From an uncultured beta proteobacterium (GTDB lineage Bacteria > Pseudomonadota > Gammaproteobacteria > Burkholderiales > Burkholderiaceae_C): a stretch of 64,000 bases of DNA. How positions within the stretch are numbered: position 1 is the first letter of the stretch; the number at the start of each line of letters is the position of its first letter. The notes under the pieces were generated by a model. That model was not told the origin of the DNA, made no database searches, and saw only the letters and a list, made by a program, of their open reading frames with translations. The DNA lies in contig CAVZHI010000021.1 in assembly GCA_963775015.1 (NCBI GenBank), positions 38,143 through 102,142 on the forward strand, in the 5' to 3' direction. Shown one piece after another: positions 34,394 to 61,860 of the stretch. A program made the position numbers and the translations under genes.

Positions 34394-34480
34394 GGGTGAA
34401 TTTGGATTCGCGTGAAAAATTCATCAAACATGTCAAGAGACCCGGTCGACGAATAAGAAGGCATTGAGCCCGGCTTATCG

Positions 34481-35771
34481 GTGCTTCGGGCGGCAACTGA
34501 AGTGATGCCATCACGGCCTATGCAACGTGTCGCCGAATTCGCCCGCACACCCGGCTCCAAGGCGCTGGCAGAAGCGCCGCAGCGCCAATCCATCGCACTC
34601 GTGATGATCGTTCGCGACGAGGCGCGCTGTATAGAAAGGTGCCTGAACAGCGTGCGGCCCTGGGTCGATCAGATGCTCGTTCTGGACACGGGCTCGCGCG
34701 ATGCGACGCCGCAGATTGCGCAGCGCTGCGGGGCGCTGGTCAAGCAGTTCTCCTGGGTCGACGACTTTTCGGCGGCGCGCAACGCCGCGCTCGCGTTCAC
34801 CGACGCGCCATGGCGGCTCGTGCTCGACGCCGACGAGTGGCTCGTCGGCGGCGGTGAAGCGCTTGCCGAGCTGCGTGGTGATCCTCCAGCGTTCCTCGGC
34901 CTGATCCAGGTGGCGAGCCGAATCGACCCAGGGCAAACCGACGCGCCGAGCTGGCTGCCGCGCTTGTTGCCCGCCGGCGTGCGCTACTCCGGTCGCATCC
35001 ACGAGCAGCCCGAATCAGCGCTGCCCCGGCGCCGCCTTCGGCTGCGCGTGGCGCACGACGGTTATCTCGCCGCACAGCGCGCCGCCAAGGCGGGGCGCAA
35101 TCGCAGGCTGCTCGAGATGGCGCTGGCGCAGGATCCGGACGACGCCTATTGGAACTACCAGCTCGGCAAGGACCTGGAGGTGAACTCGGAATTCGCGCAG
35201 GCAGAGCCCTGCTACGCCCGGGCCAACGCCGGCGCCGCAGCGGATGCCGCGTGGCGCCACGACCTCGTCGTGCGCTGGCTGTTCACGCTGAAGAAACTGG
35301 GCGCAGGTCGACGCTGCGCTGCGCATCGCCGGCGTCGAGCAGGCGTCTTGGGCGCGTTCGCCCGACTTCCACTTCACGCTCGGGGACGTGCTCTTGGAGT
35401 GCGCCATTCGGCGTCCGCAACAGGCGCCCGAGCTGTTGCCGAAGATCGAGGCGGCGTGGGAACGCGCGCTGCAGATCGGCGAGCGGCCCGACCTGCCCGA
35501 CACGGTGCGCGGCCGCGGCAGCTTCCTCGCCGCGCACAACCTGGCCGTGTTCCATGCAAGCCTCGGCCGCGCCGAAGAAGCGCGGCGCTGGGAGCAGCGG
35601 GCGCTGCGGCTGCGACAGGCGCCGACCTGGAACTCGAACTGGCGGGCTGACGCAGGCGTATTTCGCGCTTCAGCGCCTCTGCCTCGCCCTAGATTAGCCG
35701 AGCCGCCACTTCGCCGTGCCGACCCTGCTGCCCGTTCGCGGGGATCGCGCCTGCCCCGCCATGCCTCTTGA
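34481..35771 (+). pseudogene. GT2-family glycosyltransferase with C-terminal TPR-like region (GmaR-like architecture), frame disruption near 35303; both ends uncertain
   Basis: GT2 strings IALVMIVRDEARCIERCLNSV, VLDTGSRDAT and LVLDADEW (DxD). After ...WLFTLKKLG the sensible sequence continues in another frame (VDAALRIAGVEQASWARSPDFHFTLGDVLLECAIRRPQQAPELLPKIEAAWERAL...). Confidence 0.65.
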
Positions 35772-37713
35772 CCTGCCCGCCCCCTCAACGCCGACTGCGC
35801 CGCATGCGGCGGCCAAACACGCGCGCGCCTACCGCCATTGGTTCGCAGGCCAGGGTCACGCCGAGCGCGACGACTGGCGCGGCGCAGTGCGAGCGTTCGA
35901 GCAGGCAGACACCTTGTGCCGTGACAGTGCCTACGCGCTCGCCGCGATCCACGCCTTGATCAAGGCCGATCGCTCCGAAGACGCGGCGCGGCGCGCGCGC
36001 GAGTTGCGCGAGCGTGAGCCGCGCAGCGCAATCGCACACATCCTCGAGTCGCACGCGTTGCTGAATCTGGGCCGTCCGGAAGAAGCGGTCGAATGCCTGC
36101 ACGCCTTGCCCGGAGATGTGCCGCGCGACCATCAGCATCTCGTCGCGCTCGCCGTCGCGCTACAGCGTTGCCGGCGCCACCAAGACGCGATCCGCGGTTT
36201 TCTCGGCGCGCTGGCGCTGAAGATCGACGATTCGATTTCGCACTTCCGCCTCGGAATGTCGTTCAAGGACATCGGCATGAAGGCCGAAGCCGCGGAGTGC
36301 GTTCGCACCGCGGTCGTGCTGGGCGTGGGCAGCAGCGACTTGGCAGCGCGCGGTCAGCTCGCGTTTTACGAGCGCGAGGCGTGCCGTTGGCGCGAAGCGC
36401 AGGACGCTTTCGCTGCGCTGCGCGAGCGGGTGATGGCGCTGCCCGACGCGACGCCGATGGAGGCCGCGCCATTCGTCCACGCTGTGCTCTGCGCCGACCC
36501 GCAGGAGCAGCTCAAGGTGGCGCGGCACCACATGCTGCACATCGAGCGCAGCGTGGTCGCGCTGCCGCGCCGCGTGGCGCGGGCGCACGCGGGGCGTTTG
36601 CGTGTCGGTTATTTGTCGGCCGACTTCCACCAGCACGCGACGTCGCAGCTCGTCGCCCAGGCGTTCGAGGCGCACGACCGGGAGGGCCTTGAAGTGACGC
36701 TGTTTTCCGCCGGCCCGGATGACGCGAGCCCGATGCGCGCGCGCATCCGCAGCGCGTGCGAACACTTTGTCGAGTTGCGCGGGATGGGCTTTGCGGCGAT
36801 GGCGCGGCGCATCCGCGAAGCGAATGTCGATATCCTCGTCGATCTGAAAGGCGCAACCCATGACACACTGCTGCCGGTTCTCGCGCACCGCCCGGCGCCG
36901 CTGCAGGTGAATTGGCTCGGCTTCCCGGGAACCTCGGGGGCGCGGTTCATCGACTACATCGTCGGCGACCCGGTCGTGACACCGCTCGCCGATGCCGCCG
37001 ATTTCAGCGAAAAAATCGCTCAGCTGCCGCTGTGCTATCAGCCCAATGATTCATTGCGCGATCGCCCCGCTGCGAGCGGGCGCGCGCAGTGGGGCTTGCC
37101 CGAGGGCAAGGTGCTGCTCTGCGCGTTTCACCAGTCGTACAAGATTTCGGCCGAGGTCTTCGAAGCCTGGTGCGGATTGCTCCACGAATTGCCCGACGCC
37201 TGCCTGTGGCTGCTGGAATGGAACCGCAACGTCGGGCTCGCTCTGCAGCGCGCGGCGCAGGAGCGCGGCATCACGCCGAACCGGCTCGTGTTTTCGCCCG
37301 TCTTGCCCCTTGCGCAACACTTGAAGCGTCTCGCCGAGGCCGATCTCTATATAGACGCATGGCCGTGCAACGCCCACACGACCGCCAGCGAAGCGCTGTG
37401 GCTGGGCGTTCCGGTGGTCAGCCTGCGCGGCAAGACCTTTTCCCAGCGCGTCGCGGCGAGCGCGCTGAACGCCGTGGCGCTGCCGGATCTCGCGTGCGCC
37501 GACCTCAACGCCTACCGCGCGACGATCCTCGCGCTCGCCGGCGACGCGCCGCGCCGCGCAGCGCTGCGCCAGCACCTCGAAGTGCAGGCCGCACGGAGCC
37601 CGCTGTTCCAAGGCGCCGGATTCGCGCGCGAGCTCGAGAAGCTGTATCGGCGCATGTGGGAGCGCGCGGTCGCCGGCCTGGCGCCTGAGCACCTGGAAGC
37701 AGCGCACGGTTAG
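35761..37713 (+). CDS. TPR + GT41-family (OGT/SPINDLY-like) glycosyltransferase, copy 1
   Basis: N-terminal TPR-like helices. The catalytic part LRVGYLSADFHQHATSQL...ILVDLKGATHDT...RPAPLQVNWLGFPGTSGARFIDYIVGDPVVTP...KIAQLPLCYQPND is collinear with the eukaryotic OGT catalytic core as recalled (RVGYVSSDFGNHPTSHL...RPAPIQAMWLGYPGTSGA..DYIITD). Confidence 0.85.
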   Translation: MPLDLPAPSTPTAPHAAAKHARAYRHWFAGQGHAERDDWRGAVRAFEQADTLCRDSAYALAAIHALIKADRSEDAARRARELREREPRSAIAHILESHALLNLGRPEEAVECLHALPGDVPRDHQHLVALAVALQRCRRHQDAIRGFLGALALKIDDSISHFRLGMSFKDIGMKAEAAECVRTAVVLGVGSSDLAARGQLAFYEREACRWREAQDAFAALRERVMALPDATPMEAAPFVHAVLCADPQEQLKVARHHMLHIERSVVALPRRVARAHAGRLRVGYLSADFHQHATSQLVAQAFEAHDREGLEVTLFSAGPDDASPMRARIRSACEHFVELRGMGFAAMARRIREANVDILVDLKGATHDTLLPVLAHRPAPLQVNWLGFPGTSGARFIDYIVGDPVVTPLADAADFSEKIAQLPLCYQPNDSLRDRPAASGRAQWGLPEGKVLLCAFHQSYKISAEVFEAWCGLLHELPDACLWLLEWNRNVGLALQRAAQERGITPNRLVFSPVLPLAQHLKRLAEADLYIDAWPCNAHTTASEALWLGVPVVSLRGKTFSQRVAASALNAVALPDLACADLNAYRATILALAGDAPRRAALRQHLEVQAARSPLFQGAGFARELEKLYRRMWERAVAGLAPEHLEAAHG

Positions 37714-38075: not shown

Positions 38076-41000
38076 ATGGCCACCATCATCCCGAATCTGT
38101 CGACCGCGATCATCGCGGGCCTGTCCACAGCCACCATTGCGGGCCTGTCGACGGAGGACTGGGCGGCGTTCAGTACGGCGCAGATCGCTGCACTGACGAC
38201 GGCGCAGGTCGCGGTCATCGGTACCGCAGCGGTGCCGGCGCTGAGCTCGGATCACATGGCGGCGTTCGAGACCGCCGACCTGCGCGCGATCAATTCTGCG
38301 GCGCTGCGCGCGTTGTCTAGCGACCAGCTCGGCGCGCTGTCGTCGAACCAGATCGGCGCGCTCACGACGGGCCAGGTCGCCGTCCTCACGACGACCCAGG
38401 TCACGCAACTCGCGAGCGATGACCTGAATGCCCTGACAACACAGCAGTTTGCAGCACTCACCAGCGCCCAGGCGATCGCCCTCACCACAGACCAGATCGC
38501 CGCCCTGGAAAGCGCTGACCTCCGGTCGCTGAGCAGCGCAGCGCTGCGTGGCTGGAGCACCGATCAGCTCGGAGCCTTGAGTTCAGACAACATGGCGGCG
38601 CTGACCACAAGCCAGGTCACGGCGCTCACAACAGCACAAATCGCCAGCCTGGCGAGCGACGACCTGAACGCATTTGGAACGACGCAATTCTCTGCGCTGA
38701 CGACAGCCCAAGTCGCGAGCCTGACGTCGAGCCAGATCAGCACCCTGGAGAGCGCGGATCTGCGGGCCTTGGGCACGGCGCAGTACGCCGCGCTGAACAG
38801 CGCCCAGGTGCAGGGCCTCGGAACGGATCAGATGGCGGCTCTGGAGAGCGCTGACCTGCGCTCGATCAACACCGCGGCATTGCGCAGCCTGAGCACCGAC
38901 CAACTCGCCGCCTTGAACAGCGACCAGATGGGCGCGCTGACGACGGGCCAGGTCGCAGCCCTGACCACAAGCCAGATCGCCGGTCTGGGAAGCGACGACC
39001 TGAACGCGCTGACCACAGCACAGTTTGCGTCCCTGACCAGCGCCCAAGCGATTGCGCTCACGACAGACCAGATCCCGAGCCTGGAGAGCTCCGACCTGCG
39101 AGCCCTGAGCACCGCAGCCCTGCGCGGCTGGAGCACGGAGCAGCTCGGCGCGCTGAGCTCAGACAACATGGCCGCGCTGACCACAAGCCAGGTCATCGCA
39201 CTGACCACGGCTCAAATCGCCAGCCTGGTGAGCGACGACCTGAACGCGTTCGGCACGACGCAGTTTGCTGCGCTGACGACAGCGCAAGTCGCGAGCCTGA
39301 CCTCGAGCCAGATCAGCACCCTGGAGAGCGCCGACCTGCGGGCCTTGGGCACGGCGCAATACGCCGCGCTGAGCAGCGCCCAGATGCAGGGCCTGTCGAG
39401 CGACCAGATGCTGGCTCTGGAGAGCGCTGACCTGCGCTCGATCAACACCGCAGCGCTGCGAAGCCTGACCACCGACCAACTCGCCGCCTTGAGCAGCGAC
39501 CAGATGGGCGCACTGACGACGGTGCCAGGTCGCCGCCCTGACGACAAGCCAGATCGCCGGTCTGGGCAGCGACGACCTGAACGCCCTGACGACGCAGCAG
39601 TTTGCATCGCTGACCAGCGCCCAGGCGATCGCGCTCACGACAGACCAGATCCCGAGCCTGGAGAGCGCTGACCTGCGAGCCCTGAGCACCGCAGCGCTGC
39701 GTGGCTGGAGCACGGACCAGCTCGGCGCGCTGAGCTCAGACAACATGGCGGCGCTGACGACGACGCAAGTCGCAGCCCTGACGACCGCTCAAATCGCCAG
39801 CCTGGTGAGCGACGACCTGAACGCATTCGGAACGACGCAATTCTCTGCGCTGACGACAGCCCAAGTCGCAAGCCTGACATCGAGCCAGATCAGCACGCTG
39901 GAGAGCGCCGACCTGCGGGCCTTGGGCACGGCGCAATACGCCGCGCTGAACAGCGCTCAGGTGCAGGGCCTGTCGAGCGACCAGATGGCTGCTCTGGAGA
40001 GCGCTGACCTGCGCTCGATCAACACCGCAGCGCTGCGAAGCCTCACCACCGACCAGCTCGCTGCACTGAGCAGCGACCAGATGGCCGCACTGACGACGGT
40101 GCAAGTCCCCGCCCTCACGACAAGCCAGATCGCCGGCCTGGGCAGCGACGACCTGAACGCCCTGACGACGCAGCAGTTTGCATCGCTCACCAGCGCCCAG
40201 GCGATCGCCCTCACCACAGACCAGATCGCCGCCCTGGAAAGCGCTGACCTGCGAGCCCTCAGCACCGCAGCGCTGCGCGGCTGGAGCACCGACCAGCTCG
40301 GAGCCCTGAGTTCAGACAACATGGCGGCGCTCACGACGACGCAAGTCGCAGCCCTCACGACCGCCCAGATCGCGAGCCTGGTGAGCGACGACCTGAACGC
40401 ATTTGGAACGACGCAATTCTCTGCGCTGACGACAGCCCAAGTCGCGAGCCTGACCTCGAGCCAGATCAGCACGCTGGAGAGCGCCGACCTGCGGGCCTTG
40501 GGCACGGCGCAATACGCCGCGCTGAACAGCGCCCAGGTGCAGGGTCTGGCAGCGACCAGATGGCGGCTCTGGAGGCTGCTGACCTGCGCTCGATCAACAC
40601 CGCAGCGCTGCGAAGCCTGACCACCGACCAGCTCGCCGCCCTGAGCAGCGACCAGATGGCCGCACTGACGACGGTGCAAGTCCCCGCCCTCACGACGAGC
40701 CAGATCGCCGGCCTGGGCAGCGACGACCTGAACGCCCTGACGACGCAGCAGTTTGCATCGCTCACCAGCGCCCAGGCGATCGCCCTCACCACAGACCAGA
40801 TCGCCGCCCTGGAAAGCGCTGACCTCCGGTCGCTGAGCAGCGCAGCGCTGCGTGGCTGGAGCACCGACCAGCTCGGAGCCCTGAGTTCAGACAACATGGC
40901 GGCGCTCACGACGACGCAAGTCGCAGCCCTCACGACCGCCCAGATCGCGAGCCTGGTGAGCGACGACCTGAACGCATTTGGAACGACGCAATTCTCCGCG

Positions 41001-44000
41001 TTGACGACAGCCCAAGTTGCAAGCCTGACCTCGAGCCAGATCAGCACCCTGGAGAGCGCCGACCTGCGGGCCTTGGGCACGGCGCAGTACGCCGCGCTGA
41101 ACAGCGCCCAGGTGCAGGGTCTCGGAACGGATCAGATGGCGGCGCTGGAGAGCGCTGACCTGCGCTCGATCAACACCGCGGCATTGCGCAGCCTGAGCAC
41201 CGACCAACTCGCCGCCTTGAACAGCGACCAGATGGGCGCGCTGACGACGGGCCAGGTCGCAGCCCTGACCACAAGCCAGATCGCCGGTCTGGGAAGCGAC
41301 GACCTGAACGCGCTGACCACAGCACAGTTTGCGTCCCTGACCAGCGCCCAGGCGATTGCGCTCACGACAGACCAGATCCCGAGCCTGGAGAGCTCCGACC
41401 TGCGAGCCCTGAGCACCGCAGCCCTGCGCGGCTGGAGCACGGAGCAGCTCGGCGCGCTGAGCTCAGACAACATGGCCGCGCTGACCACAAGCCAGGTCAT
41501 CGCACTGACCACGGCTCAAATCGCCAGCCTGGTGAGCGACGACCTGAACGCGTTCGGCACGACGCAGTTTGCTGCGCTGACGACAGCGCAAGTCGCGAGC
41601 CTGACGTCGAGCCAGATCAGCACCCTGGAGAGCGCCGACCTGCGGGCCTTGGGCACGGCGCAATACGCCGCGCTGAACAGCGCCCAGATGCAGGGCCTGT
41701 CGAGCGACCAGATGGCGGCTCTGGAGAGCGCTGACCTGCGCTCGATCAACACCGCAGCGCTGCGAAGCCTCACCACCGACCAGCTCGCTGCCCTGAGCAG
41801 CGACCAGATGGCCGCACTGACGACGGTGCAAGTCCCCGCCCTCACGACAAGCCAGATCGCCGGCCTGGGCAGCGACGACCTGAACGCCCTGACGACGCAG
41901 CAGTTTGCATCGCTCACCAGCGCCCAGGCGATCGCGCTCACAACCGACCAGATCCCGGCGCTGGAGAGCGCTGACCTGCGGCCGCTGAGCACCGCAGCGC
42001 TGCGCGGCTGGAGCACCGACCAGCTCGGAGCCTTGAGTTCAGACAACATGGCCGCGCTGACGACGACGCAAGTCGCGGCCCTCACGACCGCACAAATCGC
42101 CAGCCTGGTGAGCGACGACCTGAACGCGTTCGGAACGACGCAATTCTCTGCGCTGACCACGGCCCAGGTCGCGAGCCTGACCTCGAGCCAGATCAGCACC
42201 CTGGAGAGCGCCGACCTGCGGGCCTTGGGCACGGCGCAATACGCCGCGCTGAACAGCGCCCAGATGCAGGGCCTGTCGAGCGACCAGATGGCGGCTCTGG
42301 AGAGCGCTGACCTGCGCTCGATCAACACCGCAGCGCTGCGAAGCCTCACCACCGACCAGCTCGCCGCCCTGAGCAGCGACCAGATGGCCGCACTGACGAC
42401 GGTGCAAGTCCCCGCCCTCACGACGAGCCAGATCGCCGGCCTGGGCAGCGACGACCTGAACGCCCTGACGACGCAGCAGTTTGCATCGCTCACCAGCGCC
42501 CAGGCGATCGCCCTCACCACAGACCAGATCGCCGCCCTGGAAAGCGCTGACCTCCGGTCGCTGAGCAGCGCAGCGCTGCGTGGCTGGAGCACCGACCAGC
42601 TCGGCGCCTTGAGTTCAGACAACATGGCGGCGCTGACCACAAGCCAGGTCACGGCGCTCACGACCGCCCAGATCGCGAGCCTGGTGAGCGACGACCTGAA
42701 CGCATTTGGAACGACGCAATTCTCCGCGTTGACGACAGCCCAAGTTGCAAGCCTCACATCGAGCCAGATCAGCACCCTGGAGAGCGCCGACCTGCGGGCC
42801 TTGGGCACGGCGCAATACGCCGCGCTGAACAGCGCCCAGGTGCAGGGCCTCGGAACGGATCAGATGGCGGCTCTGGAGAGCGCTGACCTGCGCTCGATCA
42901 ACACCGCGGCACTGCGAAGCCTCACCACCGACCAGCTCGCTGCACTGAGCAGCGACCAGGTGGCCGCACTGACGACGGTGCAAGTCCCCGCCCTCACGAC
43001 AAGCCAGATCGCCGGCCTGGGCAGCGACGACCTGAACGCCCTGACGACGCAGCAGTTTGCATCGCTCACCAGCGCCCAGGCGATCGCCCTCACCACAGAC
43101 CAGATCGCCGCCCTGGAAAGCGCTGACCTCCGGTCGCTGAGCAGCGCAGCGCTGCGTGGCTGGAGCACCGACCAGCTCGGCGCCTTGAGTTCAGACAACA
43201 TGGCGGCGCTGACGACGAAGCCAGGTCGCGGCGCTCACGACCGCACAAATCGCCAGCCTGGTGAGCGACGACCTGAACGCGTTCGGAACGACGCAGTTCT
43301 CCGCGTTGACGACAGCCCAAGTTGCAAGCCTCACATCGAGCCAGATCAGCACCCTGGAGAGCGCCGACCTGCGGGCCTTGGGCACGGCCCAATACGCCGC
43401 GCTGAACAGCGCCCAGATGCAGGGCCTGTCGAGCGACCAGATGGCGGCCCTGGAGAGCTGCTGACCTGCGCTCGATCAACACCGCAGCGCTGCGAAGCCT
43501 CACCACCGACCAGCTCGCTGCCCTGAGCAGCGACCAGATGGCCGCACTGACGACGGTGCAAGTCCCCGCCCTCACGACGAGCCAGATCGCCGGCCTGGGC
43601 AGCGACGACCTGAACGCCCTGACGACGCAGCAGTTTGCATCGCTCACCAGCGCCCAGGCGATCGCGCTCACAACCGACCAGATCCCGGCGCTGGAGAGCG
43701 CTGACCTGCGAGCCCTCAGCACCGCAGCGCTGCGCGGCTGGAGCACCGACCAGCTCGGAGCCCTGAGTTCAGACAACATGGCCGCGCTGACAACGACGCA
43801 GGTCGCGGCCCTCACGACCGCCCAAATCGCCAGCCTGGTGAGCGACGACCTGAACGCGTTCGGAACGACGCAATTCTCTGCGCTGACGACGGCCCAGGTC
43901 GCGAGCCTGACCTCGAGCCAGATCAGCACCCTGGAGAGCGTCGACCTGCGGGCCTTGGGCACGGCGCAATACGCCGCGCTGAACAGCGCCCAGGTGCAGG

Positions 44001-45835
44001 GCCTCGGAACGGATCAGATGGCGGCTCTGGAGAGCGCTGACCTGCGCTCGATCAACACCGCAGCGCTGCGAAGCCTCACCACCGACCAGCTCGCTGCACT
44101 GAGCAGCGACCAGATGGCCGCACTGACGACGGTGCAAGTCCCCGCCCTCACGACGAGCCAGATCGCCGGCCTGGGCAGCGACGACCTGAACGCCCTGACG
44201 ACGCAGCAGTTTGCATCGCTCACCAGCGCCCAGGCGATCGCCCTCACAACCGACCAGATCCCGCCCTGGAAAGCGCTGACCTGCGAGCCGCTCAGCACGC
44301 AGCGCTGCGCGGCTGGAGCACCGACCAGCTCGGAGCCTTGAGTTCAGACAACATGGCGCGCGCTGACCACGAGCCAGGTCGCGGCGCTCACGACCGCACA
44401 AATCGCCAGCCTGGCGAGCGACGACCTGAACGCGTTCGGAACGACGCAATTCTCTGCGCTGACGACAGCCCAAGTCGCGAGCCTGACCTCGAGCCAGATC
44501 AGCACGCTGGACAGCGCCGACCTGACCGCACTCACGACAGCTCAATACGCCGCGTTCTCGACCGCCCAGGTGATCGCGTTCACGACGGATCAGATCTCGC
44601 TCATCGAAACCGCCGATCTGCGCGCGCTCACGTCGAGCTCGCTGCGCGCCCTCACCGACGCGCAATTGGCCGAATTGACGACGACGCAGATCACCTCGCT
44701 CGGCGGCCAGGTCGTGAACCTGACGACGTCGCAGCTCGCCGGCCTCGCGTCGGATGACCTGAACGCGATGACCCAGGCGCAGTTCTCGCTCCTCACGAGC
44801 GCGCAGATTTCGCACCTGACGACATCGCAGGTGTCGACGCTGGAGACCGCCGACCTGCGCGCCATCAGCACGGCCAGCCTGCAGGCGATGACGACGGACC
44901 AGATCGTCGCGATCACGACGGACCAGTTCCAGGCCTTGAGCTCGGCGCAGATCGTCGCCTTCACGACGGCACACGCCGCGGCGTTGACGACAGACCAGAT
45001 CGTCGCCTTCACGACGGACCAGATCGTCGCGCTGCAAACGCAGGACATCGCCGCGATGTCGATGACGCAGGTGTCGGCGTTCGAAGGCGCGGACATCTCG
45101 GTCATGACGGCGTCGCAGATCGACGCCATCTTCGCCGCGTCGCCGATCATGCTCGACCTGGACGGCCACGGCGTGAACACGACCGCCGCGGCGCAGGGCG
45201 TGAACTTCGACCTGAACGCGACCGGCAGTGCGCACAAGGTCGGCTGGGCGTCAGCCGGCGACGGCCTGCTCGTGATGGACCGCAACGGCGACGGCAAGAT
45301 TGGCGACGGCAGTGAGCTGTTCGGCACGGCGACACGCCTGGCCGACGGCACGCGCGCCGGCAACGGCTACGAAGCGATGGCGCAGCACGACAGCAACCAC
45401 GACGGCGTGCTCTCCGGCGCCGACGTCGACTTCCAGAAGCTGCAGCTGTGGGTCGACGCGAACGTCGACGGCAAGACGGATGCGGGCGAGCTGCACAGCC
45501 TGGCCGAGTTCGGCGTCGCGTCTCTGGACCTGAAGGGTCTGGCCGGAACGCAGGTGGACAACGGCAATTTGCTGGGTCTGACGTCGACCTACACGACGAC
45601 CGACGGCGCACAACACGCCACGGCCGACGTCTGGTTCGCGAAGGACACGCCGGCGGTGCCACCGAAGCTCGACGAGTTGCTCGCGGCGCCGTCCGCCGAG
45701 TTGCTTGCTGCAGCGCCGGTGGGCCACGCCGCGCCCACACCGGTGGCCGCGAGCCATGTTCCCACGGCGGCGCCGGCAGGAATCGACCGGAACCTGTTGC
45801 CGATCGACGAGAACAAGCACCAACCGCTGATCTGA
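38076..45835 (+). CDS. Giant octapeptide-repeat protein 1 (about 2,585 codons if repaired); interrupted as sequenced by six 1-nt indels (about 39526, 40548, 43215, 43455, 44262, 44358)
   Basis: AAGGA RBS 7 nt before ATG 38076 and no signal peptide. About 290 consecutive 8-aa units L-[ST]-[ST]-x-Q-[IVLMF]-x-[AS] with no register break. Pieces are ORFs 38022..39671, 39745..40620, 40560..43526, 43261..43464, 43538..44341 and 44570..45835, and each junction is repaired by a single-base change relative to sister repeats. The C-terminal Ca-loop module ends ...GIDRNLLPIDENKHQPLI. Confidence 0.8.
38097..45140 (+). repeat. Hierarchical coding tandem repeat: 24-nt unit, 576-nt (24-unit) higher-order repeat present about 11 times, with a further 2,304-nt recurrence
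   Basis: The anchor gacaacatggc recurs at about 38586, 39162, 39738, 40314, 40890, 41466, 42042, 42618, 43194, 43771 and 44347 (576-nt steps, +1 after indels). Variant marker gaacggatcag lies at 38821 and 41125 (2,304 nt apart). Confidence 0.9.
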
Positions 45836-45913: not shown

Positions 45914-48900
45914 ATGAAGATTTCGCTTCCGAAGTGGTTCTCGACCTCGATCATCTTCAACGCGGTCAGGTCATGGATGGGGCAGCTGGGCCAGAACCAC
46001 TCGCAGGGCCCGGGACCGGGCGGTGGGTTCACCGACGCGCAGGCGCGTGCGCTCACGCCGTCGCAAATTGCGGCGTTGAGTCCTGACGAGTTCAACGCGC
46101 TCAGCGTCGCGCAGTTCGCCGCCTTCAGCGTGGCCCAGATCGGGGGGATGACGTCGGCGCAATGGGGCGCGCTGCAGGCGGACTACCTGCAGTCGCTCAG
46201 CACCGCGGCGATGAACAGTCTGTCGATCGCCCAGGTCGGCGCGCTGAACCCGGCGCAGCTGGCGTTTCTCAGCGGCGCCCAACTGAGGGCGCTCTCGCCA
46301 GGCATCGTCGGGCGCCTGGGGCCGAGTTACGTGGAGGCGCTGAGCAGCGACCAACTCGCGGCACTGAGCACGTCGCAGATCGCCGAGTTGACGGGTGCGC
46401 AAATTGCGGTGCTGAGCAGCAGCGACCTCAAGGCGCTCGGCACGACACAGTTTGCCGTCATGTCGACGGCGCAGGTGGTCGCCCTGAGCACGGCGCAGGT
46501 CGCTGCGCTGGACAGCGCCGACCTGAGCGCCTTGAGCAGCAACGCGCTGCGCGCCATGAGCACGGCGCAGCTTGCCGCCCTGGGCAGCGACCAGATCGTG
46601 GCGCTGAGCACGGCACAGGTCAAGGCGTTCAGCACCGGTCAGGTCGCAAGCCTGACCACGGAAGACCTGAACGCGCTGACGAGCGCGCAGTTCGCAGCGC
46701 TCACGTCGGCGCAGGGGCTGGCGCTCACCTCGGCCCAAATTGCCGCGCTCGAGACCGCTGACCTGCGTGCTTTGGGAACCGCCGCGCTGCGCGCCTGGAG
46801 CAGCGCCCAGCTCCTGGCGCTCGGCTCGGACCAGCTGGCGGCGCTCAGCACGGCGCAAGTTGCCGCCTTGACGAGCAGCTCGATCGCACTCCTCAGCCCG
46901 GCTTCGATCGACGCGCTGACGAGCTCGCAGCTTGCGGCGCTGACGACAGCGCAAGTGACGGCGCTGACGACGGCACAGCTGGTGGCGCTGTCCACAGGCG
47001 ACCTGAATGCACTGCGCACCGCGCAGTTCGCGGCCTTCACGACCGGCCAGGTGGCGGCGCTGACGACGGCGCAGGTCTCGGCGCTGATCGACAGACGACC
47101 TGCGTGCGCTCGGCACGGCGCAGTACGCGGCGCTCGGCACGGCGCAGCTGCGATCCCTCACGACCGACCAGATGCCGGCACTGGAGACGAGCGACCTGCG
47201 CGCCCTCGGCTCGGATGCGCTGCGGATCCTGTCGAGTGCGCAATTCGACGCCCTGACCTCGGTGCAGATCGCGGCCCTGGGCTCATGGCAGATCGCCGCG
47301 CTGACGACGAGCCAAGTGGGGGCGCTCGGCACCGACGACATCCGCGCCCTGGGCAGTGCCCAAGTCGCCGCGCTGTCGACAGCGCAAGTCTCGGCGCTGG
47401 CGCCGTTGCAGGTGGCAGCGCTCGAAACTTCCGACCTGCGTGCTTTGAGCACCGCGGCGTTGCAAGGATTGAGCAGCGCACAACTCGACGCACTCGGCGC
47501 GGCGCAGTTCGCCGCTCTGACGACGACGCAGGTGCGGTCGCTCCTGCCGGGCCAATTGGCAGAACTGGCGACGCAAGACCTGAACGCCTTCACGACAGCC
47601 CAGTTTGCCGTGATCGGCACTGCGCAAGTGGTGGCGTTCACGACCGAGCAGGTGGCGGCGCTGGAAACGGCGGATCTGCGCGCGCTGAGCCAGGCGGCGC
47701 TGAACGCGATGACGCCGCAACAGATGAATGCGCTGACCGCCGTGCAGCGCGCTTCGCTGTCGACGGCGCAGGTCGCCGCAATGAGCACGGCGCAAATCGC
47801 GGCGCTGCGAACCGACGACTTGAACGCCCTGGGAACGAACCACTTCGCGGCGTTCAACAGCGCCCAGGTCGGCGCCTTCACGCCGGAGCAGATCGGCGCG
47901 CTCGAAAGCGCCGACCTGCGCGTCCTCGTCGCTTCGGGCCTGGGCACCTGGGGCGCAGCGCAAGTCGGTGCGCTGGGCACCGCCCAAGTGATCACGCTCA
48001 CGTCGACCCAATTCGCCGGCTTCGGCAGCGCTCAAATCGCTGCCCTCAGCACCGAGCAGATTGCCGCGATCGAAACCCTCGACCTGCGCGCCTTGAGCAG
48101 CGCGGCGTTGCAGGGGCTGTCGCTGGCGCAATTCGAGGCGCTGGGAACGACGCAAATCGTCGCCCTGACGACGGCGCAAATCGCGGGGCTCGGCGGGAGT
48201 CAGCTCGCGAGCCTCGGCAGCGCCGAATTGAACCTGCTCAGCAGCGCCCAATTCGCAGCGCTCACGAGCGCCCAGGTGAGCGCGTTCAGCACCGAGCAGA
48301 TTGCGAATCTCGAGACCGTCGACCTGCGCGCGCTCACGACGCTCGCGTTCCAGGCGCTCGGCACCGAGCAGATCGTCGCGTTCACGACGGAGCAATTCGC
48401 CGCGCTGCGCACAGCGCAGATCGCTGCGCTGACGACGGAGCAGGCGGCGGCGCTGACCACCGCCGAGATCGCCGCCTTCACGACGGCACAGATCGTGGGT
48501 CTGGAAACACGCGACATCGCGGTGATGTCGTTGACGCAAGTCTCCGCGTTCGAGGCCGCCGACGTGGCCGTGATGTCGCCGGCGCAGATCGACGCGCTGC
48601 TCGCGGCCACGCCGATCATGCTCGACCTGAATGGCGACGGCGTGCGCACGCTCGCCGCGAGCGAAGGCGTGCGTTTCGACTTGAACGGTACGGGCCATGT
48701 GCAGCAAGTGGGCTGGGTGTCGGCGAGCGACGGCCTGTTGGTGTGGGACCGCGATCACAACGGCCGGATCGACGACGCAGGCGAACTCTTCGGAGGCGCG
48801 ACGCGGCTTCCCGACGCAAGCCGCGCCGGCAACGGCTACGCCGCATTGGCCGCGCTCGACAGCAACCAGGACGCAGCGCTGAGCGGCGCCGATCCGAACT

Positions 48901-49298
48901 TCAAGGACTTGCAGTTGTGGGTCGACGCGAACCACGACGCCGTCACCGACGAGGGCGAGCTGCACAGCCTGGGCGAGTTCGGCGTCACGCAGCTCGGCCT
49001 GCACGCCCAAGCCGGGAGTGCCATGGACAACGGCAACCTGCTCGGCCTGGTGTCGACTTACACGACTGCCGACGGCGCGCAGCATGCGATGGCTGACGTG
49101 TGGTTGGCGAAGCACGTCGCGCCTTCGGCGCAGCCGCCGCTGCACGACTTGCTCGCGACGTCGGCGCCGGCGCTGTTGGCGGAAGCAGCGTTGCATCCAC
49201 CGGCGCCGCCTCCCGCGACCTCTGCCGCCGCCCCGGCAGGTGGCGTCGACCGCAACTTGTTGCCGATCGACGAGAACAAGACGCCGCCGCTCATCTGA
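45914..49298 (+). CDS. Giant octapeptide-repeat protein 2 (about 1,127 codons if repaired); one frame disruption near 47095
   Basis: ORF 45914..49096 carries sensible sequence up to ...TTAQVSAL. It continues in ORF 47172..49298 (MPALETSDLRALGSDALRIL...). About 105 diverged octads are in the same register. The C-terminal module and tail (...GVDRNLLPIDENKTPPLI) are paralogous to gene 1. Confidence 0.8.
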
Positions 49299-55258: not shown

Positions 55259-55544
55259 GGAGGGCCTTCCTGCGGCGCGTGGTGATGGAGTGATGGGTTG
55301 ATCGATTCAGCGCCTTGGCATTCTGGTGCGCGAGGTGGACCCGCTTGGCACCGATAAGCAGCGTGTTCGGGGCTCAGTTGTGCATGGGTGTGGGGCAGCG
55401 CAGCGCGGCCGCGCTTCGAATTGGCGCCGAATCGCTGCGCTGATGCGCAGACCCAGGCGCGACGGCGCTGCCCACAATGGCGACGCGTCCGGCTGTGACA
55501 CCGGCGCAGCTGCGATTCCTGTGTCAACAGACCCTCGTGAGCCG

Positions 55545-57389
55545 ATGAAAAAACCGACCTATCCGTCAGTCGCAGCGAATCAGACACTGAGCCAACCGAG
55601 CGAGCGCGAGCGCGACCTGCTGCTCGCGCGCTCGGGGAGCATGGCGCTCACCGAGCTGATGCGCGCCGCCGAAGCGCTCACCCAAGCCGGCCAGCCCGCA
55701 GCGGCCGCCGAGCTTTACGAGACCTGGATCACGCACACCGTCTCGCCGATGCAGCATGTGGCGTGTTTCAACTGGGGCACGGTGCTCGGCAGCCTGTCGC
55801 GCCATGTCGAGGCGGAACGCGCGTACCGCAGAGCGCTCGCACTGAGCGACGGCTTCCTGCACGCGCGCCTGAACCTCGGGCATCAGCTCGAACACCTGGG
55901 CCGCCCCGCTGAGGCGCTGGCCGAGTGGCAGGCCGTGAACGACGCGAAAGGCGTCGCGCTCGAGCTGCGCCTGCACGCGCTGAACAACATGGCGCGGCTG
56001 CACGAACAGGAGCGCCGTTACGAAGAAGCCGAAGCGTGCATGCGCGCGAGCCTGACGCTGAAAGCGGCGCAAAGCGATGTGATCCAGCACTACGTGCACC
56101 TGCGGCAGAAGAAGTGCGCCTGGCCGGTCTACGAGCCGGTGGGCGCGGTGACGCAAAACCAGTTGCTCACGGGGACGTCGGCGCTCGCGATGCTCGGGGC
56201 GAGCGACGACCCGGCGCTGCAACTGCTCGCGGCGCAGCGCTTCGTCTTTGAGCGCGTCCCCAAGCCGCCTGCGCTGCCGTTTCACGCGAGCGGCGCGAAG
56301 CGCGAAGGCAAAGTCAAGGTCGGCTACCTGTCGGGCGACCTTCACATGCACGCGGTGGGCTTGCTCAGCGTCGAATTGTTCGAATTGCACGACCGGAGTC
56401 GTTTCGACGTGCACGCGTTTTCCTGGAGCCGCGACGACGGAACGCCGTTGCGCGCGCGCCTGCGCGCTGCGATTGAGCATTACCACCCGGTGGCTCTGCT
56501 GGACGATGCGAGCGTGGCGCGCCTCATCGCTGCGCAAGGCATCGACGTGCTCGTCGACCTGCAAGGCCTGACGAACGGCGCGCGCCCGGCCATCGTCGGC
56601 ATGCGCCCGGCGCCGGTGCAGTTGAGTTACCTCGGCCTGCCGGGGACCTGCGGTTTGCCGGGCGTCGACTGGATTCTTGCGGACCGCTTCGTCATGCCGC
56701 CGGAGCTGCTGCCCTACATGACCGAGCAGCCGATTTACGTGCCGCACTGTTATCAGGTGAGCGACCGCAAGCGCGAAGCCGCAGCACGGCCGACGCGAGC
56801 CGCTTACGGCTTGCCCGAAGACGCGTTCGTGTTCTGCTCGTTCAACAACTCGTTCAAGTTCACGCCCGAGGTCTTCGGCGCCTGGCTGCGCATCCTGAGC
56901 CAGGTTCCGAACAGCGTGCTCTGGCTGCTTGCGGACAACGATTGGGCGCACGCGAACCTGCTGCGCCACGCCGACGCGCAAGGCATCGCACGCGAGCGCC
57001 TGATCCTGGCGCCGCGCGTCGCGCCGCCCGAGTACCTGGCGCGCTTTCAGCTCGCCGACGTGATGCTCGACACGTTCCCGTACAACGCCGGAACGACGGC
57101 GAGCGACGCGCTCTGGATGGGCCTGCCGATCGTTACCTGGTCCGGGCGCAGCTACATCTCGCGCATGGCGGGCAGTCTGCTGCACGCGGTGGGACTGCCG
57201 GACCTCGTGACGCACTCACTCGCCGACTACGAGCGCCTGGCGGTTCAGCTCGGCCAGAACCCGCCGCGCGTCGCGTCGTACAAGCGTTTCCTGGCCGAAC
57301 ATGGGCGGCAGTCCAAGCTGTTCGACGTGCCGGGGCTGGTGCGCGATATCGAGGCTGAGTTCGAGCGCTTGGCTTGGGCGTACCGCTGA
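55545..57389 (+). CDS. TPR + GT41-family (OGT/SPINDLY-like) glycosyltransferase, copy 2
   Basis: Start at MKKPTYPSVA (55545). VKVGYLSGDLHMHAVGLL...VLVDLQGLTNGAR...RPAPVQLSYLGLPGTCGLPGVDWILADRFVMPP...YVPHCYQVSD is collinear with copy 1. Confidence 0.85.
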   Translation: MKKPTYPSVAANQTLSQPSERERDLLLARSGSMALTELMRAAEALTQAGQPAAAAELYETWITHTVSPMQHVACFNWGTVLGSLSRHVEAERAYRRALALSDGFLHARLNLGHQLEHLGRPAEALAEWQAVNDAKGVALELRLHALNNMARLHEQERRYEEAEACMRASLTLKAAQSDVIQHYVHLRQKKCAWPVYEPVGAVTQNQLLTGTSALAMLGASDDPALQLLAAQRFVFERVPKPPALPFHASGAKREGKVKVGYLSGDLHMHAVGLLSVELFELHDRSRFDVHAFSWSRDDGTPLRARLRAAIEHYHPVALLDDASVARLIAAQGIDVLVDLQGLTNGARPAIVGMRPAPVQLSYLGLPGTCGLPGVDWILADRFVMPPELLPYMTEQPIYVPHCYQVSDRKREAAARPTRAAYGLPEDAFVFCSFNNSFKFTPEVFGAWLRILSQVPNSVLWLLADNDWAHANLLRHADAQGIARERLILAPRVAPPEYLARFQLADVMLDTFPYNAGTTASDALWMGLPIVTWSGRSYISRMAGSLLHAVGLPDLVTHSLADYERLAVQLGQNPPRVASYKRFLAEHGRQSKLFDVPGLVRDIEAEFERLAWAYR

Positions 57390-58645: not shown

Positions 58646-60010
58646 TCACTCCAGCCAAGCCGATACCCCCAACCCCAGCGAGCGCAGCAACGCCGACGCC
58701 TGCTGGCCGTCGTGCAAGGCGTTGATGTAGGCGACCCTGAGGTTGTAGTGTTCGCTCTCGGCTGACATCACGTCAAAGAGCGAGCGCCGCGCCAGCTGCT
58801 GCCATTGCTGGAGCGTGAAGTTGCGCACCTGGTTGCTGTCGCGAACGATGGCGCTCGTCTGGCGTGCGCGGTCGAAACTCGACGCCGCCTGTTCGTGGAC
58901 TTCGGCGATGCGTGACCTTCGTGCCTCCAACGCGTCCTTGCTTTGCAGGCGCGCCGCTTCGGCGCGCTTCTTCGCCGCGTCGATGCCGTAGTCCGCCCCC
59001 TGGTTGATGAGCGGCATGCTGAAGCTGATGCCGGCGAGCACGGTTCCGGGGTGGTTCCCGCCGCCTGCCTTGGAGCCCGTGAGCACCCAGTTGAGCTGCG
59101 GTTTCTGCGCCGCGACGACGGCGCGCGAATAACTCTCGAGCGCCTTCGCCTGCGCCTCGAGCTGGGCGATTTCGCTCGCTCGCGCCGCTTGCGCTTCCAT
59201 GTCGGGCAGCGGCGGAACGTCGAGCAGTAACGCCGTCATGCCCTCGCTGCTGGGCATGCCGTCGCCGATGAAGCGCTTCAACCTTGTTTCCGCCTGGCGC
59301 AATTGCGACACCGACTGCGACTGTGCCAGATCGGCCTGCGCAAGCGTCTTGCGCGCCTGCACGAGCTCGCTGGTGCGGCCGCGGTCCGCCTTGACGATCT
59401 GGTCCAGCACTTCGACGAGGCAAGCCATCTTGCGCGAAAACTGCTGATAAATCCGCGCCTGCTGGCGATGCCGATTGCGCTCGAGCGCGAGCGACACGGT
59501 CTGGAACGCGACCTGTTCCTGTGCCGTGAGCTGCCCCTGCCGCGCCGCCTCCGACAGGCTCGCGCGCCAGCCGGTGATGGAGGCGATGCGGCCCGAGTCG
59601 TAGAGCGGCGCGCTGACGTTGATGCCGATCTGCGCCTGGCCACCCGATTGCGAAACGACGTCTTTGGCCGACGCCGCGGCATAGCCCGTCGTCGCGGTGA
59701 CGGTCGCCTGCACGAGGCGTGCCGCGCGCGCTTCTTCGACTTCACTCGCGGCAGCTTCGGCGAGCAGCTTCGCCGCGCCGACGGCGTTGCTGCGCCGGAT
59801 CGCCTCTTGCACCATCGCTTGCAGCGTCAGGCGCGGCGCGTTCGCGTCGCTCGGAGCGGCGCCCGGTGTGCCGGCTGTGGCAGGGAGGGCGACGTCGGGG
59901 GCGTCTTCGTCGACGCAGCGTTGCGCCTGGGCGGGGAGAGCGAACAGCAGCAGCACCAGCGCCGCGGTGCAGCGGCGCGTGCGCGAGGAGGGCAGGGAAG
60001 GAACGGTCAT
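58646..60010 (-). CDS. TolC-family outer-membrane factor of the type I secretion system
   Basis: Start at MTVPSLPSSRTRRCTAALVLLLFALPAQA (60010). Two tandem helical-hairpin halves. Last gene of the ABC-MFP-OMP string. Confidence 0.85.
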   Translation of the reverse strand: MTVPSLPSSRTRRCTAALVLLLFALPAQAQRCVDEDAPDVALPATAGTPGAAPSDANAPRLTLQAMVQEAIRRSNAVGAAKLLAEAAASEVEEARAARLVQATVTATTGYAAASAKDVVSQSGGQAQIGINVSAPLYDSGRIASITGWRASLSEAARQGQLTAQEQVAFQTVSLALERNRHRQQARIYQQFSRKMACLVEVLDQIVKADRGRTSELVQARKTLAQADLAQSQSVSQLRQAETRLKRFIGDGMPSSEGMTALLLDVPPLPDMEAQAARASEIAQLEAQAKALESYSRAVVAAQKPQLNWVLTGSKAGGGNHPGTVLAGISFSMPLINQGADYGIDAAKKRAEAARLQSKDALEARRSRIAEVHEQAASSFDRARQTSAIVRDSNQVRNFTLQQWQQLARRSLFDVMSAESEHYNLRVAYINALHDGQQASALLRSLGLGVSAWLE

Positions 60011-60193
60011 GGTCAGGGTCGGATCGCCGGCGCAAGACATGCCGCGCCAAGCCGTTTTTGAGAGCCGCAACCTTAACCGCGAGGTCTCACCAGCTTGCCG
60101 AGGGGCGATGCAGAAGGGCCTGAATTCGGGCCGGTCGCGTGGCAAAGTGCCGAAATCAGGGCTTCAGTTTGTGATGCTGCAGCCGAGCGAGTT

Positions 60194-60404: not shown

Positions 60405-61637
60405 TCAGCCATCCTGAAACGCCTCCTTGGACTTGAGCATCGGCCGCAGCAAATAGCTCATCACGCTGCGCTCGCCGGTCCGCACTTCGACCGAGCCCGT
60501 CATGCCGGGCATCACGGGCAGCGGCTTGCCGTGCGCCATGAGCGTCGACGAGTCGGTGCGAACGAGGGCGCGGTAGTAGGTGGCGTCGGCGGCGCTGCCG
60601 CGTTCCGGGTCGCCGAGCGCGTCCGGGCTGATCGTCTCGATGCGGCCTTTCAGTCCGCCGTACATCGCGTAGTCGTACGCAGAGAGTTTGATCTCGACAC
60701 TCTGGCCGACGCGAACGAAGCCGATCGACGCGGGTTTGATCCGCGCCTCGATGAGCACCCGGTTGCCGAGCGGCACGATTTCCATCACCGGCGCGCCCGG
60801 CGCAATGACGCCGCCGATCGTCGCGATGCGGATGTTCTTCACCAGGCCGCGCACGGGGGACTTGAGCACGGTGCGGCGCAGCACGTCGGCGCGGCCGCTG
60901 ATCTGCTCGTTGACTTGCGCGAGCTCGGTCTGCACGCGAACCAGGTCGCTGCTCGCGTCCTGGCGAAAGCGGTTCACGCGCTCGGCGACCTGGAGCCGCA
61001 GGTCGTTCACCTGGCGCCGCAGGCGGATCACTTCGACGTTCGACATCAAGCCCTTGTCGGCCATGTTCTGCGCCAGGTCGAGCTCGCGCTGCAGCAGCGC
61101 AACGCTCAACTGCGTCGACGCGACCGCGTCCTGCAAGGAATGGCGTCGCGCCTGGTACGACGCGGTTTCGCCTTGCACGATGTCGGGGAGCGCCGCCACT
61201 TCGGGCGGGAACTTGAGCGCTCGCCCCGACGCTTCGGCGGTGAGGCGCGCGATCGTCGCCTGCAATGCGAGGCGTTTCGCCTGGCCTTCGTTCTGCTGCG
61301 CCTCGAAGCGCGTCGGGTCGATCAGCGCGAGGTCCTGGCCGGCGTCGACCTGCATGCCCTCGCGCACGAGCAGTTCGCGCAGGATGCCGCCCTCCAGGCT
61401 CGCGATCACTTGCTCGCGGCCGTCGGGAATGACGCGGGCGTCGGCGCGCGTGATGTCGTCGACGCGCGTCAGGCTCGCCCACGCGAGCGCTGCTCCGAGA
61501 ACGAGCGCGAGCAGGATCAGCGCCCAGCTCGTGCCCGGCGTTGCGTCGAGCACTTGCGCGGCGCGCAGCGGCGACAGGTAAGGCGCATCGCTGCGCAACG
61601 GTGCGCGTTCGGCATTGGACTTGTCGCGCCAGAACAT
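60405..61637 (-). CDS. HlyD-family type I secretion membrane-fusion protein
   Basis: Start at MFWRDKSNAERAPL (61637). A single N-terminal TM helix (WALILLALVLGAALAWASL), long coiled-coil segments, and a C-terminal beta-barrel region (...GMTGSVEVRTGERSVMSYLLRP). Confidence 0.85.
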   Translation of the reverse strand: MFWRDKSNAERAPLRSDAPYLSPLRAAQVLDATPGTSWALILLALVLGAALAWASLTRVDDITRADARVIPDGREQVIASLEGGILRELLVREGMQVDAGQDLALIDPTRFEAQQNEGQAKRLALQATIARLTAEASGRALKFPPEVAALPDIVQGETASYQARRHSLQDAVASTQLSVALLQRELDLAQNMADKGLMSNVEVIRLRRQVNDLRLQVAERVNRFRQDASSDLVRVQTELAQVNEQISGRADVLRRTVLKSPVRGLVKNIRIATIGGVIAPGAPVMEIVPLGNRVLIEARIKPASIGFVRVGQSVEIKLSAYDYAMYGGLKGRIETISPDALGDPERGSAADATYYRALVRTDSSTLMAHGKPLPVMPGMTGSVEVRTGERSVMSYLLRPMLKSKEAFQDG

Positions 61638-61688
61638 GGTCAGGACCTCGGCCCTTGAAGGCGATGCCGACCCTGACCCTCGAACCCC

Positions 61689-61860
61689 GTCATCCCGGCG
61701 AGTCCCGTCATCCCAGCAAGTCCCGTCATCCCGGCGAAGGCCGGGATCCACTGCCCGCCCTGGCGCAGTTTCCCAGCAGTGGATCCCGGCGTTCGCCGGG
61801 ATGACGGGGAACGGCGCGATGATGGGGAATGGCGCGATGACGGGGAATGGCGCGTTGACG
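61689..61860. repeat. REP-like inverted pair (61725-61751; 61779-61805) flanked by two 18-nt triplicated micro-repeats
   Basis: gtcatcccggcgagtccc / gtcatcccagcaagtccc / gtcatcccggcg... on the left. ggggaaYggcgcgatgaY three times on the right (61806-61860). Confidence 0.85.

Follow-up and report, generated by a model that had tools for sequence, protein, structure and literature searches.

In a 64,000-nt stretch of DNA from an uncultured beta proteobacterium (GenBank assembly GCA_963775015.1, contig CAVZHI010000021.1, positions 38,143 to 102,142 of the forward strand), hereafter the window, in whose own numbering all positions are given, a giant gene made almost entirely of octapeptide repeats is found at 38076-45835 (gene 1). 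On balance we consider it probable that gene 1 is a mis-assembled copy of a gene for a 2,585-residue, type-I-secreted extracellular rod or fibre of the ALTTAQ repeat family, which is possibly O-glycosylated. The product carries Pfam ALTTAQ repeats (PF20080), is predicted to be helical throughout its repeat region and ends in a homologue of FrpC's self-processing module (SPM). In the same window lie genes for a type I secretion system (T1SS) and for OGT-like glycosyltransferases of family GT41. The gene and its repeats comprise the following features.

38076..45835, plus strand: giant ALTTAQ-repeat gene (gene 1), with a repaired coding sequence for 2,585 aa
38064..38069, plus strand: Shine-Dalgarno-like AAGGAA, 6 nt ahead of the ATG at 38076, read from the sequence
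38097..45142, plus strand: array of about 293 octads in the repaired translation, each predicted by AlphaFold2 (AF2) as one helix of 5-6 residues
38361..44500 (end approximate), plus strand: higher-order unit of 576 nt (192 aa, 24 octads) in about 10.5 tandem copies, found by Tandem Repeats Finder and self-alignment

As deposited, 38076-45835 consists of at least six open reading frames (ORFs) in all three plus-strand frames, as seen both in an ORF listing and in a three-frame scan, and the octad motif hops between these frames along the gene. By aligning the frame-switch regions to the intact paralogous copies at 40650-43150, eight single-base insertions or deletions (indels) were located.

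39525, plus strand: single-base insertion (+1)
40551, plus strand: single-base deletion (-1)
43217, plus strand: single-base insertion (+1)
43459, plus strand: single-base insertion (+1)
44263 (-1), 44286 (+1), 44298 (-1) and 44358 (+1), plus strand: four clustered single-base indels

The sequence around the indels is otherwise 95-97% identical to the paralogous copies. Repair of all eight yields a coding sequence of 7,758 nt without internal stop, which encodes 2,585 amino acids and terminates at the stop codon 45833-45835. GC content at third codon positions (GC3) is 0.81-0.91 in every segment of the repaired gene, and the repeat pattern is undamaged, with 100% hydrophobic residues at position 1 and 99% Ser/Thr at position 3. 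The start codon is backed by an MA[ST]II N-terminus that is conserved in homologues and by the Shine-Dalgarno-like sequence. A first-pass annotation, made from the DNA letters alone, had described a single giant ORF here; its coordinates and the repeat were correct, but the eight indels split the frame in the DNA as it stands. Programmed frameshifting or phase variation was rejected as an explanation, since the eight indels are independent and, by eye, lie outside simple-sequence tracts. A scan for sigma-70 promoters returned none and a terminator scan remained at chance level, both being uninformative. Elsewhere on the minus strand, at 24750-27700 and 12300-16400, a TonB-dependent receptor is spread over three frames and frame shifts break each of OppB, OppC and a family-5 solute-binding protein, indicating either a general indel problem of the assembly or genome decay. 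Thus, such lesions are not specific to gene 1.

The gene 1 product has 275 octads without a break in register at residues 8-2207, a single unit of 7 residues (2208-2214) and then 17 further octads up to the C-terminal module, so that octads do run throughout, as had been noted at first sight, but the register is interrupted once. The consensus is L-[TS]-[TS]-x-[QD]-hydrophobic-x-[AS]. Leu occupies position 1 in 86% of the octads, position 2 is Thr (41%), Ser (21%), Gly (13%) or Glu (12%), and position 3 is Thr (55%) or Ser (44%). Ala (42%) and Asp (31%) prevail at position 4, Gln (65%) and Asp (21%) at position 5, Leu, Ile, Val, Met or Phe at position 6, Ala (42%) and Arg (20%) at position 7, and Ala (60%), Ser (22%) and Gly (12%) at position 8. 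Hydrophobic power at period 8 is 98 times the spectrum mean, the maximum in 500 residue shuffles being 11 times. Copies of the higher-order unit share 95-97% of their nucleotides and 81-97% of their amino acids. The composition reported for one 192-aa unit was confirmed on recount (50 Ser/Thr or 26%, one Pro, one Trp, one Tyr, no Lys, Cys or His, and a net charge of -11), as was the lack of RTX sequences: no GGxGxD motif, and hence no tandem GGxGxDxUx nonapeptide array, occurs anywhere in the repaired 2,585-aa protein. The rod as a whole (38076-45142) is acidic and has no Lys, no Cys and 57 Arg in 2,352 residues. Lys numbers in homologous rods are 0-19 in 10 of 12 examined, the exceptions having 18 and 33, so that Lys-poor rods across most homologues are a suggestive trend. 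Several homologues (loci L049, L068 and L033) contain no Lys in 1,600-3,100 residues, and the homologue at locus L015 has 33 Lys and just 8 Arg.

The first-pass annotation could name no family for this repeat. This did not hold, as two higher-order units score 406.9 bits (E=6.6e-125) with Pfam PF20080 (ALTTAQ repeat) at a cut-off of 26.4, the C-terminal ORF of gene 1 127.6 bits (E=1.3e-37) and the product of a neighbouring paralogue, gene 2, 269.7 bits (E=4.9e-82), all far above the curated gathering threshold. A confident match, which by its own terms would refute the first-pass annotation, was thus found at the level of a named family; no paper on this family, however, stands in the searchable literature, in which neither ALTTAQ, PF20080 or PF26745 nor a combination of T1SS, OGT and a giant repeat returned a relevant paper. 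NCBIfam contained no match for the repeat or the C-terminal module. The non-repetitive C-terminal 259 aa matched 576 proteins with precomputed domains PF20080 and PF26745, nearly all of them short fragments from broken contigs; named hosts are Methylibium, Rhizobacter, Ideonella, Roseateles/Paucibacter, Rubrivivax, Aquabacterium and Sphaerotilus. In Burkholderiales, at least 552 encoding stretches were confirmed when species-representative genomes were scanned, and 80 of them were used for comparisons at the level of loci. In many of these 80 the ORF is intact, with a length of 1,256 to over 3,500 aa, and the intact homologues share the N-terminus, the unbroken octad register and the C-terminal module with gene 1, while the number of repeats varies. 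When 1.84 billion cluster representatives (50%-identity clusters) were searched by HMMER with a single 192-aa unit, 1,607 proteins reached E<=1e-3 and 121 of them E<=1e-30, with lengths up to 5,499 aa. At least one of these, P0165 (4,921 aa), has ALTTAQ repeats together with a YDG domain and an ESPR signal for type V secretion; consequently, the repeat also occurs outside type I substrates. Gene 1 is a new member of a catalogued but experimentally unstudied family, and since this family is already in Pfam and abundant in databases, the novelty of its product is limited.

AF2 predicted the structure of 384 aa of window repeats (48 octads) with a mean predicted local distance difference test score (pLDDT) of 94.0 and a predicted TM-score (pTM) of 0.80. 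The model consists of about 46 helices of 5-6 residues and contains no strands. A second model of the C-terminal 421 aa, built on an anchored alignment of 80 sequences (pLDDT 89.5, pTM 0.80), shows 23 octad helices with pLDDT above 94 and, behind them, a beta-rich domain and a disordered tail. When a profile of the last approximately 20 octads and the module was run against PDB sequences, it matched HeliScrew4 (9ZEM) with E=1.3e-21. A single higher-order unit matched the same entry without gaps and in register (E=1.5e-14, 36% identity over 110 aa). HeliScrew4 is a designed alpha-helical screw with an 8-residue repeat, presented in a preprint of December 2025 (bioRxiv 10.64898/2025.12.04.691947). 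In such screws short helices are tightly wound clockwise around an apolar core with 2.5-4.0 units per turn. The designs have Ser, Thr, Asp or Asn as N-caps and Pro at N1, their fold was validated by crystallography at 2.2 Å, and a single natural PDB example of 8-mer screws, 7QLR, was reported for this class, which was termed protein "dark matter" (bioRxiv 10.64898/2025.12.04.691947). The octad profile of gene 1 and its 9ZEM match provide the hallmark of an 8-residue repeat with an N-cap and clustered apolar residues, and the AF2 prediction that of one short helix per repeat without other elements.

The hydrophobic staple and the capping box are established motifs of helix starts. The octad reads naturally as a combination of both, with positions 1 and 6 as N' and N4 of the staple and positions 2 and 5 as N-cap and N3 of the capping box; position 3, Ser/Thr in 99% of units, is N1. 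The spacing of the hydrophobic positions 1 and 6, which had puzzled the first-pass annotation, is thereby explained. In addition, Asp at position 5 (xDL[RN]) marks octads that return every 3.37-3.46 octads; 9 of 13 diverse homologues have this super-period as their top spectral peak, which suggests approximately 3.4 octads per superhelical turn. The super-period of about 3.4 octads persists in most homologues despite differing higher-order repeats, and it may give one face of the rod an Asp/Arg stripe. The continuous solenoid initially envisaged is therefore retained by the uninterrupted helix chain of the AF2 prediction and by the match to a crystallised design, but its geometry, having been described in 2025, is not new. 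Likewise, the 2-3 octads per turn offered as an example would give way to about 3.4, in an alpha-helical arrangement and not a beta-helix. A beta-helix was rejected as a reading because the repeat is predicted to be helical without strands.

Downstream of the octads the gene 1 product ends in a module and a tail, which together make up its last approximately 230 residues, and the next gene encodes a shorter paralogue.

45143..45655, plus strand: FrpC-type SPM fold, PF26745, assigned by the 6SJW match, Foldseek and residue mapping
45656..45832, plus strand: disordered C-terminal tail (pLDDT below 50) ending ...DRNLLPIDENKHQPLI, a putative type I secretion signal
45914..49298, plus strand: gene 2, the shorter ALTTAQ paralogue, with a single frame shift near 47087 and about 1,127 aa once this is repaired

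The profile that contains the module matched the PDB sequences 6SJW/6SJX of the FrpC SPM with E=6e-57. In Foldseek the module superposed on the FrpC SPM with a TMt of 0.83 at 45% identity, and a search seeded with FrpC returned FrpC homologues labelled PF26745, the same identifier as the gene 1 module. A Pfam scan of the module with a library copy that lacks PF26745 gave sub-threshold EF-hand matches alone. In FrpC, Ca2+ triggers cleavage of the Asp414-Pro415 bond via an aspartic anhydride that links to lysines; four Ca2+ sites are present, and D478 and D579 lie near the scissile bond (PMC7078468). The latter two belong to a transient fifth Ca2+ site. The fold of about 177 residues and the equivalents of all four EF-hand-like Ca2+ sites (D419/D421/G424/D456, D462-E474, D499-D510 and D521-E532), of Pro415 and of D579 are conserved in gene 1 and gene 2. 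The scissile Asp-Pro at the N-terminal edge is absent, however. Asp414 is replaced by Ser in gene 1 and by Thr in gene 2, and the residue before the Pro in 175 family instances is Thr in 101, Ser in 74 and Asp in none, as opposed to Asp in 69 of 77 FrpC-seeded matches. In place of D478, gene 1 has Thr and gene 2 Gly, and an acidic residue is never found there across the family. By these alignments the ALTTAQ modules are a distinct Ser/Thr-Pro clade of the SPM fold. Since Ser/Thr-Pro takes the place of Asp-Pro in all family members, the classical clip-and-link reaction by an aspartic anhydride should not occur there, and by its defining residue the module lies outside that functional class. The last approximately 60 residues behind the module end in ...PLI, which is conserved across homologues, and a disordered tail with a conserved end presumably acts as the secretion signal. 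Gene 2 has its own SPM-like module (Thr-Pro) and a C-terminal tail near-identical to that of gene 1 (...DRNLLPIDENKTPPLI). Its N-terminal region is unlike that of gene 1, with Pro at position 3 of the first repeats (LTPSQIAALSPDEF), as in the designed HeliScrew.

The neighbouring genes were assigned by Pfam scans.

30192-30632, minus strand: fliS
30721-32166, minus strand: fliD
32391-33236, minus strand: flagellin 1
33483-34286, minus strand: flagellin 2
34481-35650, plus strand: GT2 glycosyltransferase
35716..37713, plus strand: first TPR-GT41 (OGT-like; Pfam 2.2e-81), 362 nt upstream of gene 1 on the same strand
49445-50197, minus strand: FkbM-type methyltransferase
51923-55258, minus strand: AsnB fused to a TOD1/MUCI70 glycosyltransferase-like domain
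55326..57389, plus strand: second TPR-GT41 (OGT-like; Pfam 1.4e-76)
57133-58482, minus strand: AbiEii ORF
58646..60145, minus strand: TolC-like outer-membrane factor (Pfam OEP), conserved beside ALTTAQ genes
60405..61751, minus strand: HlyD-family membrane-fusion protein (Pfam HlyD_3)
61917..63998, minus strand: T1SS ABC transporter (Pfam ABC_membrane and ABC_tran), from which the window end cuts about 63 aa

As is typical of type I substrates, genes for an ABC transporter, a membrane-fusion protein and a TolC-like factor are all found nearby (58646-63998). The first-pass annotation had recognised neither these and the GT41 genes nor the FrpC-type, Ca2+-binding nature of the C-terminal module. 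By eye, the N-terminus of the gene 1 product shows no resemblance to a signal peptide, the repeats beginning at residue 8. Both GT41 enzymes carry TPRs and are OGT-like; the first matches human OGT with 6e-77 and XcOGT with 2.5e-73, the second XcOGT with 6e-84 and human OGT with about 1e-70, and the HMW1C-type model reaches just 23.7 bits against a cut-off of 1000. Orthologues of the second GT41 (60-71% identity) adjoin T1SS genes at the ALTTAQ loci L019, L070 and L071, and the ABC transporter of the window is 61% identical to that of locus L043 from residue 64 of the latter.

For a wider view, 53 related loci whose downstream flank measures at least 8 kb were examined for genes within 10 kb downstream. 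T1SS components were found at 17 of them, GT41 at 13, both at 10 and flagellar genes at none, and an association with flagellar genes was rejected as a conserved link. In Aquabacterium, Ideonella and one further metagenome-assembled genome, a co-directional GT41-TolC-HlyD-ABC block lies directly 3' of the ALTTAQ gene; in Leptothrix and Sphaerotilus the ALTTAQ gene is followed on the same strand by GT41, beyond which lie another glycosyltransferase and the ABC gene. The linkage to T1SS and GT41 is recurrent across genera and gene orders, but not universal in the visible flanks. At several loci (L043, 16450-17751; L012, 2916-4124; L056; L073) GT41 and the T1SS ABC gene are separated by a further glycosyltransferase (Glyco_trans_1_2), of which no counterpart was found in the window.

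Further observations concern the surroundings of this cluster. At 28218-37713, fliS, fliD and two short flagellins (267 and 281 aa) abut a TylF-type O-methyltransferase, the GT2 gene and the first TPR-GT41, which resembles a glycosylation island for flagellin that has become joined to the ALTTAQ/T1SS cluster. The protein encoded at 51923-55258 (minus strand; 1,111 aa) joins GATase and Asn_synthase domains to the TOD1/MUCI70 glycosyltransferase-like domain, an unusual combination. The ORF for an AbiEii-type nucleotidyltransferase toxin overlaps the 3' end of the second GT41 ahead of the T1SS operon. Three plus-strand ORFs (32-1753, 4067-5323 and 50148-51770) have no Pfam match at 1e-5, the first two of them having coding-like GC3.

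How far do these data carry the proposed rod? Eight frame shifts in gene 1, together with one in gene 2, could mean that the copy is dead, so that both genes would be pseudogenes with real frame shifts and lost translation. Public annotation indeed has just a 421-aa C-terminal fragment of gene 1 as a protein, and the further broken genes in the window could reflect genome decay. All lesions are single-base, however, and the repaired frame shows neither stop codon nor larger deletion nor loss of pattern. Coding GC3 is intact, intact orthologues are common, and the unrelated transporter genes show the same type of lesion at similar density, as expected from indel-prone sequencing. Single-base lesions and like damage in ordinary neighbour genes make an assembly error, poorly polished within the repeats, considerably more likely than true decay at gene 1, and we regard pseudogenes as an unlikely explanation, albeit one to be taken seriously. 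As for the fold, a leucine-rich-repeat (LRR) or beta-solenoid architecture, in which three octads would form one LRR turn of 24 residues, was suggested by weak profile matches to LRRTM (2.9e-07) and by Pfam LRR_EndoS (2.2e-08), just above its cut-off. The HeliScrew4 match is better by 14 orders of magnitude, though, AF2 at pLDDT 94 gives short helices alone, the octad profile has neither the asparagine ladder of LxxLxLxxN nor a conserved Asn position, and the super-period is about 3.4 octads instead of 3.0. With matches this weak and without predicted strands or a conserved Asn, membership of the LRR class was rejected, and such a fold is hardly credible here. Several other points also weigh against a secreted, glycosylated screw. 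Neither 9ZEM nor 7QLR was among the matches listed by Foldseek for the AF2 models against the PDB, and the best match of the repeat model was to mesothelin-like alpha-solenoids with a TM of about 0.3; the three-dimensional screw is thus read from secondary-structure prediction and from sequence similarity to a designed protein. T1SS/GT41 linkage is seen in just a quarter to a third of the loci with enough flank, the GT41 genes of the window also adjoin genes for flagellin, a classical target of glycosylation, and ALTTAQ proteins are described in no paper of the searchable literature.

The proximity of the flagellin genes raises the question of whether GT41 and the other sugar genes of the window serve flagellin glycosylation alone, the ALTTAQ protein being exported unmodified. 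Flagellin glycosylation islands are well known, and GT2, GT41 and methyltransferases directly adjoin the two flagellin genes, fliD and fliS. In Aquabacterium, Ideonella, Leptothrix, Sphaerotilus, Paucibacter and Roseateles, on the other hand, GT41 stands beside ALTTAQ and T1SS genes with no flagellar gene within 10 kb. A role restricted to flagellin is consequently rather doubtful, even if it is the likeliest of the rival readings. The C-terminal module, in turn, might perform the canonical reaction of FrpC, namely Ca2+-triggered cleavage by which the rod would be joined covalently to a lysine of a second protein. The clear homology to the FrpC SPM, the identical fold and the preserved Ca2+ sites, Pro415 and D579 would be in line with this, and a rod without lysine (0 in 2,352 residues, with most homologues Lys-poor) would avoid linking to itself. 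The Asp414 position is Ser or Thr in 175 of 175 instances, however, and that of D478 is never acidic; Asp is retained in 69 of 77 canonical homologues, and D414A abolishes both cleavage and ligation in FrpC (PMC7846742). Clip-and-link by the canonical route is therefore very improbable. A slightly better, but still small, chance is given to another Ca2+-triggered processing or ligation by the Ser/Thr-Pro module and the lysine-free rod, for instance an N-to-O acyl shift or an ester intermediate, which would anchor or polymerise an O-glycosylated screw fibre of more than 2,000 residues outside the cell. Most likely, the FrpC-like module acts as a Ca2+-triggered extracellular folding nucleus and not as a clip-and-link device.

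Based on these considerations we propose the following course for the secreted ALTTAQ rod. Each octad would form one short N-capped alpha-helix, and about 293 such helices would wind without interruption into a screw solenoid, with positions 1, 6 and 8 in the core and roughly 3.4 octads per superhelical turn. If the turns stack about 1 nm apart, the rod would be approximately 80-90 nm long. The OGT-like TPR-GT41 enzymes probably O-glycosylate the displayed Ser/Thr residues in the cytoplasm before export, which would proceed C-terminus first through the neighbouring TolC-HlyD-ABC system. Outside the cell, Ca2+ would fold the module, which would thus serve as a folding nucleus in place of the missing RTX repeats, and the screw would fold behind it. 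The exported product may then function as a fibre or adhesin.

The in-register match between HeliScrew4 and ALTTAQ suggests a wide natural use of the screw, in about 1,600 clusters and in arrays of thousands of residues; as giant natural counterparts of a fold that has mostly been solved in designs, ALTTAQ proteins would be natural test cases for screw stability, length control and mechanics. The self-processing module of FrpC underlies the NeissLock technology for protein ligation; the large SPM clade with Ser/Thr in place of Asp may be a natural inactive scaffold or may use a different chemistry. If the proposal is true, a T1SS substrate and the OGT-like enzymes linked to it would constitute a system by which bacteria heavily O-glycosylate a secreted fibre. 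These points of interest hold for the family and are not specific to the frame-shifted copy in the window.

A comparison with known systems places the gene 1 product between several of them. At the level of the family no difference is apparent: it matches the family model along the whole array, and with PF20080 and PF26745 it has the same architecture as hundreds of Burkholderiales proteins and is one more member. HeliScrew4 and the gene 1 rod share Leu at position 1, a Ser/Thr N-cap at position 2, Gln, Glu or Asp at position 5, a hydrophobic residue at position 6 and Ala at positions 7-8. HeliScrew4 has about 14 repeats with Pro at N1, whereas the gene 1 rod, part of a putative secreted multidomain protein, numbers about 293 repeats and has Ser/Thr at N1; the two were compared by sequence, and their similarity need not reflect common descent. 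The modules of FrpC and ApxIVA resemble that of gene 1 as Ca2+-binding folds of about 170 residues with 44-46% identity in giants that are, or in the case of gene 1 would be, exported by type I secretion. In contrast, the gene 1 module has neither Asp-Pro nor D478 nor following RTX nonapeptides, and it lies at the extreme C-terminus instead of mid-protein as in FrpC and ApxIVA.

Giant T1SS adhesins of the LapA, SiiE and MpIBP type have Ig-like beta-sandwich extenders, RTX repeats and an N-terminal retention module. Gene 1 is like them in encoding a very long, repetitive and presumably Ca2+-dependent protein with a variable number of repeats and with ABC, membrane-fusion and TolC genes in the vicinity, but it would use a helical octad screw as extender, has no RTX repeats and leaves just 7 residues ahead of its repeats. 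With OGT targets and with the HMW1-HMW1C pair it has in common a GT41 gene beside a large, Ser/Thr-rich, putative secreted protein. The GT41 enzymes of the window are OGT-like, however, unlike the HMW1C-like N-glycosyltransferases, and a modification of the ALTTAQ rod by them would presumably take place on the oxygen of its Ser and Thr side chains.

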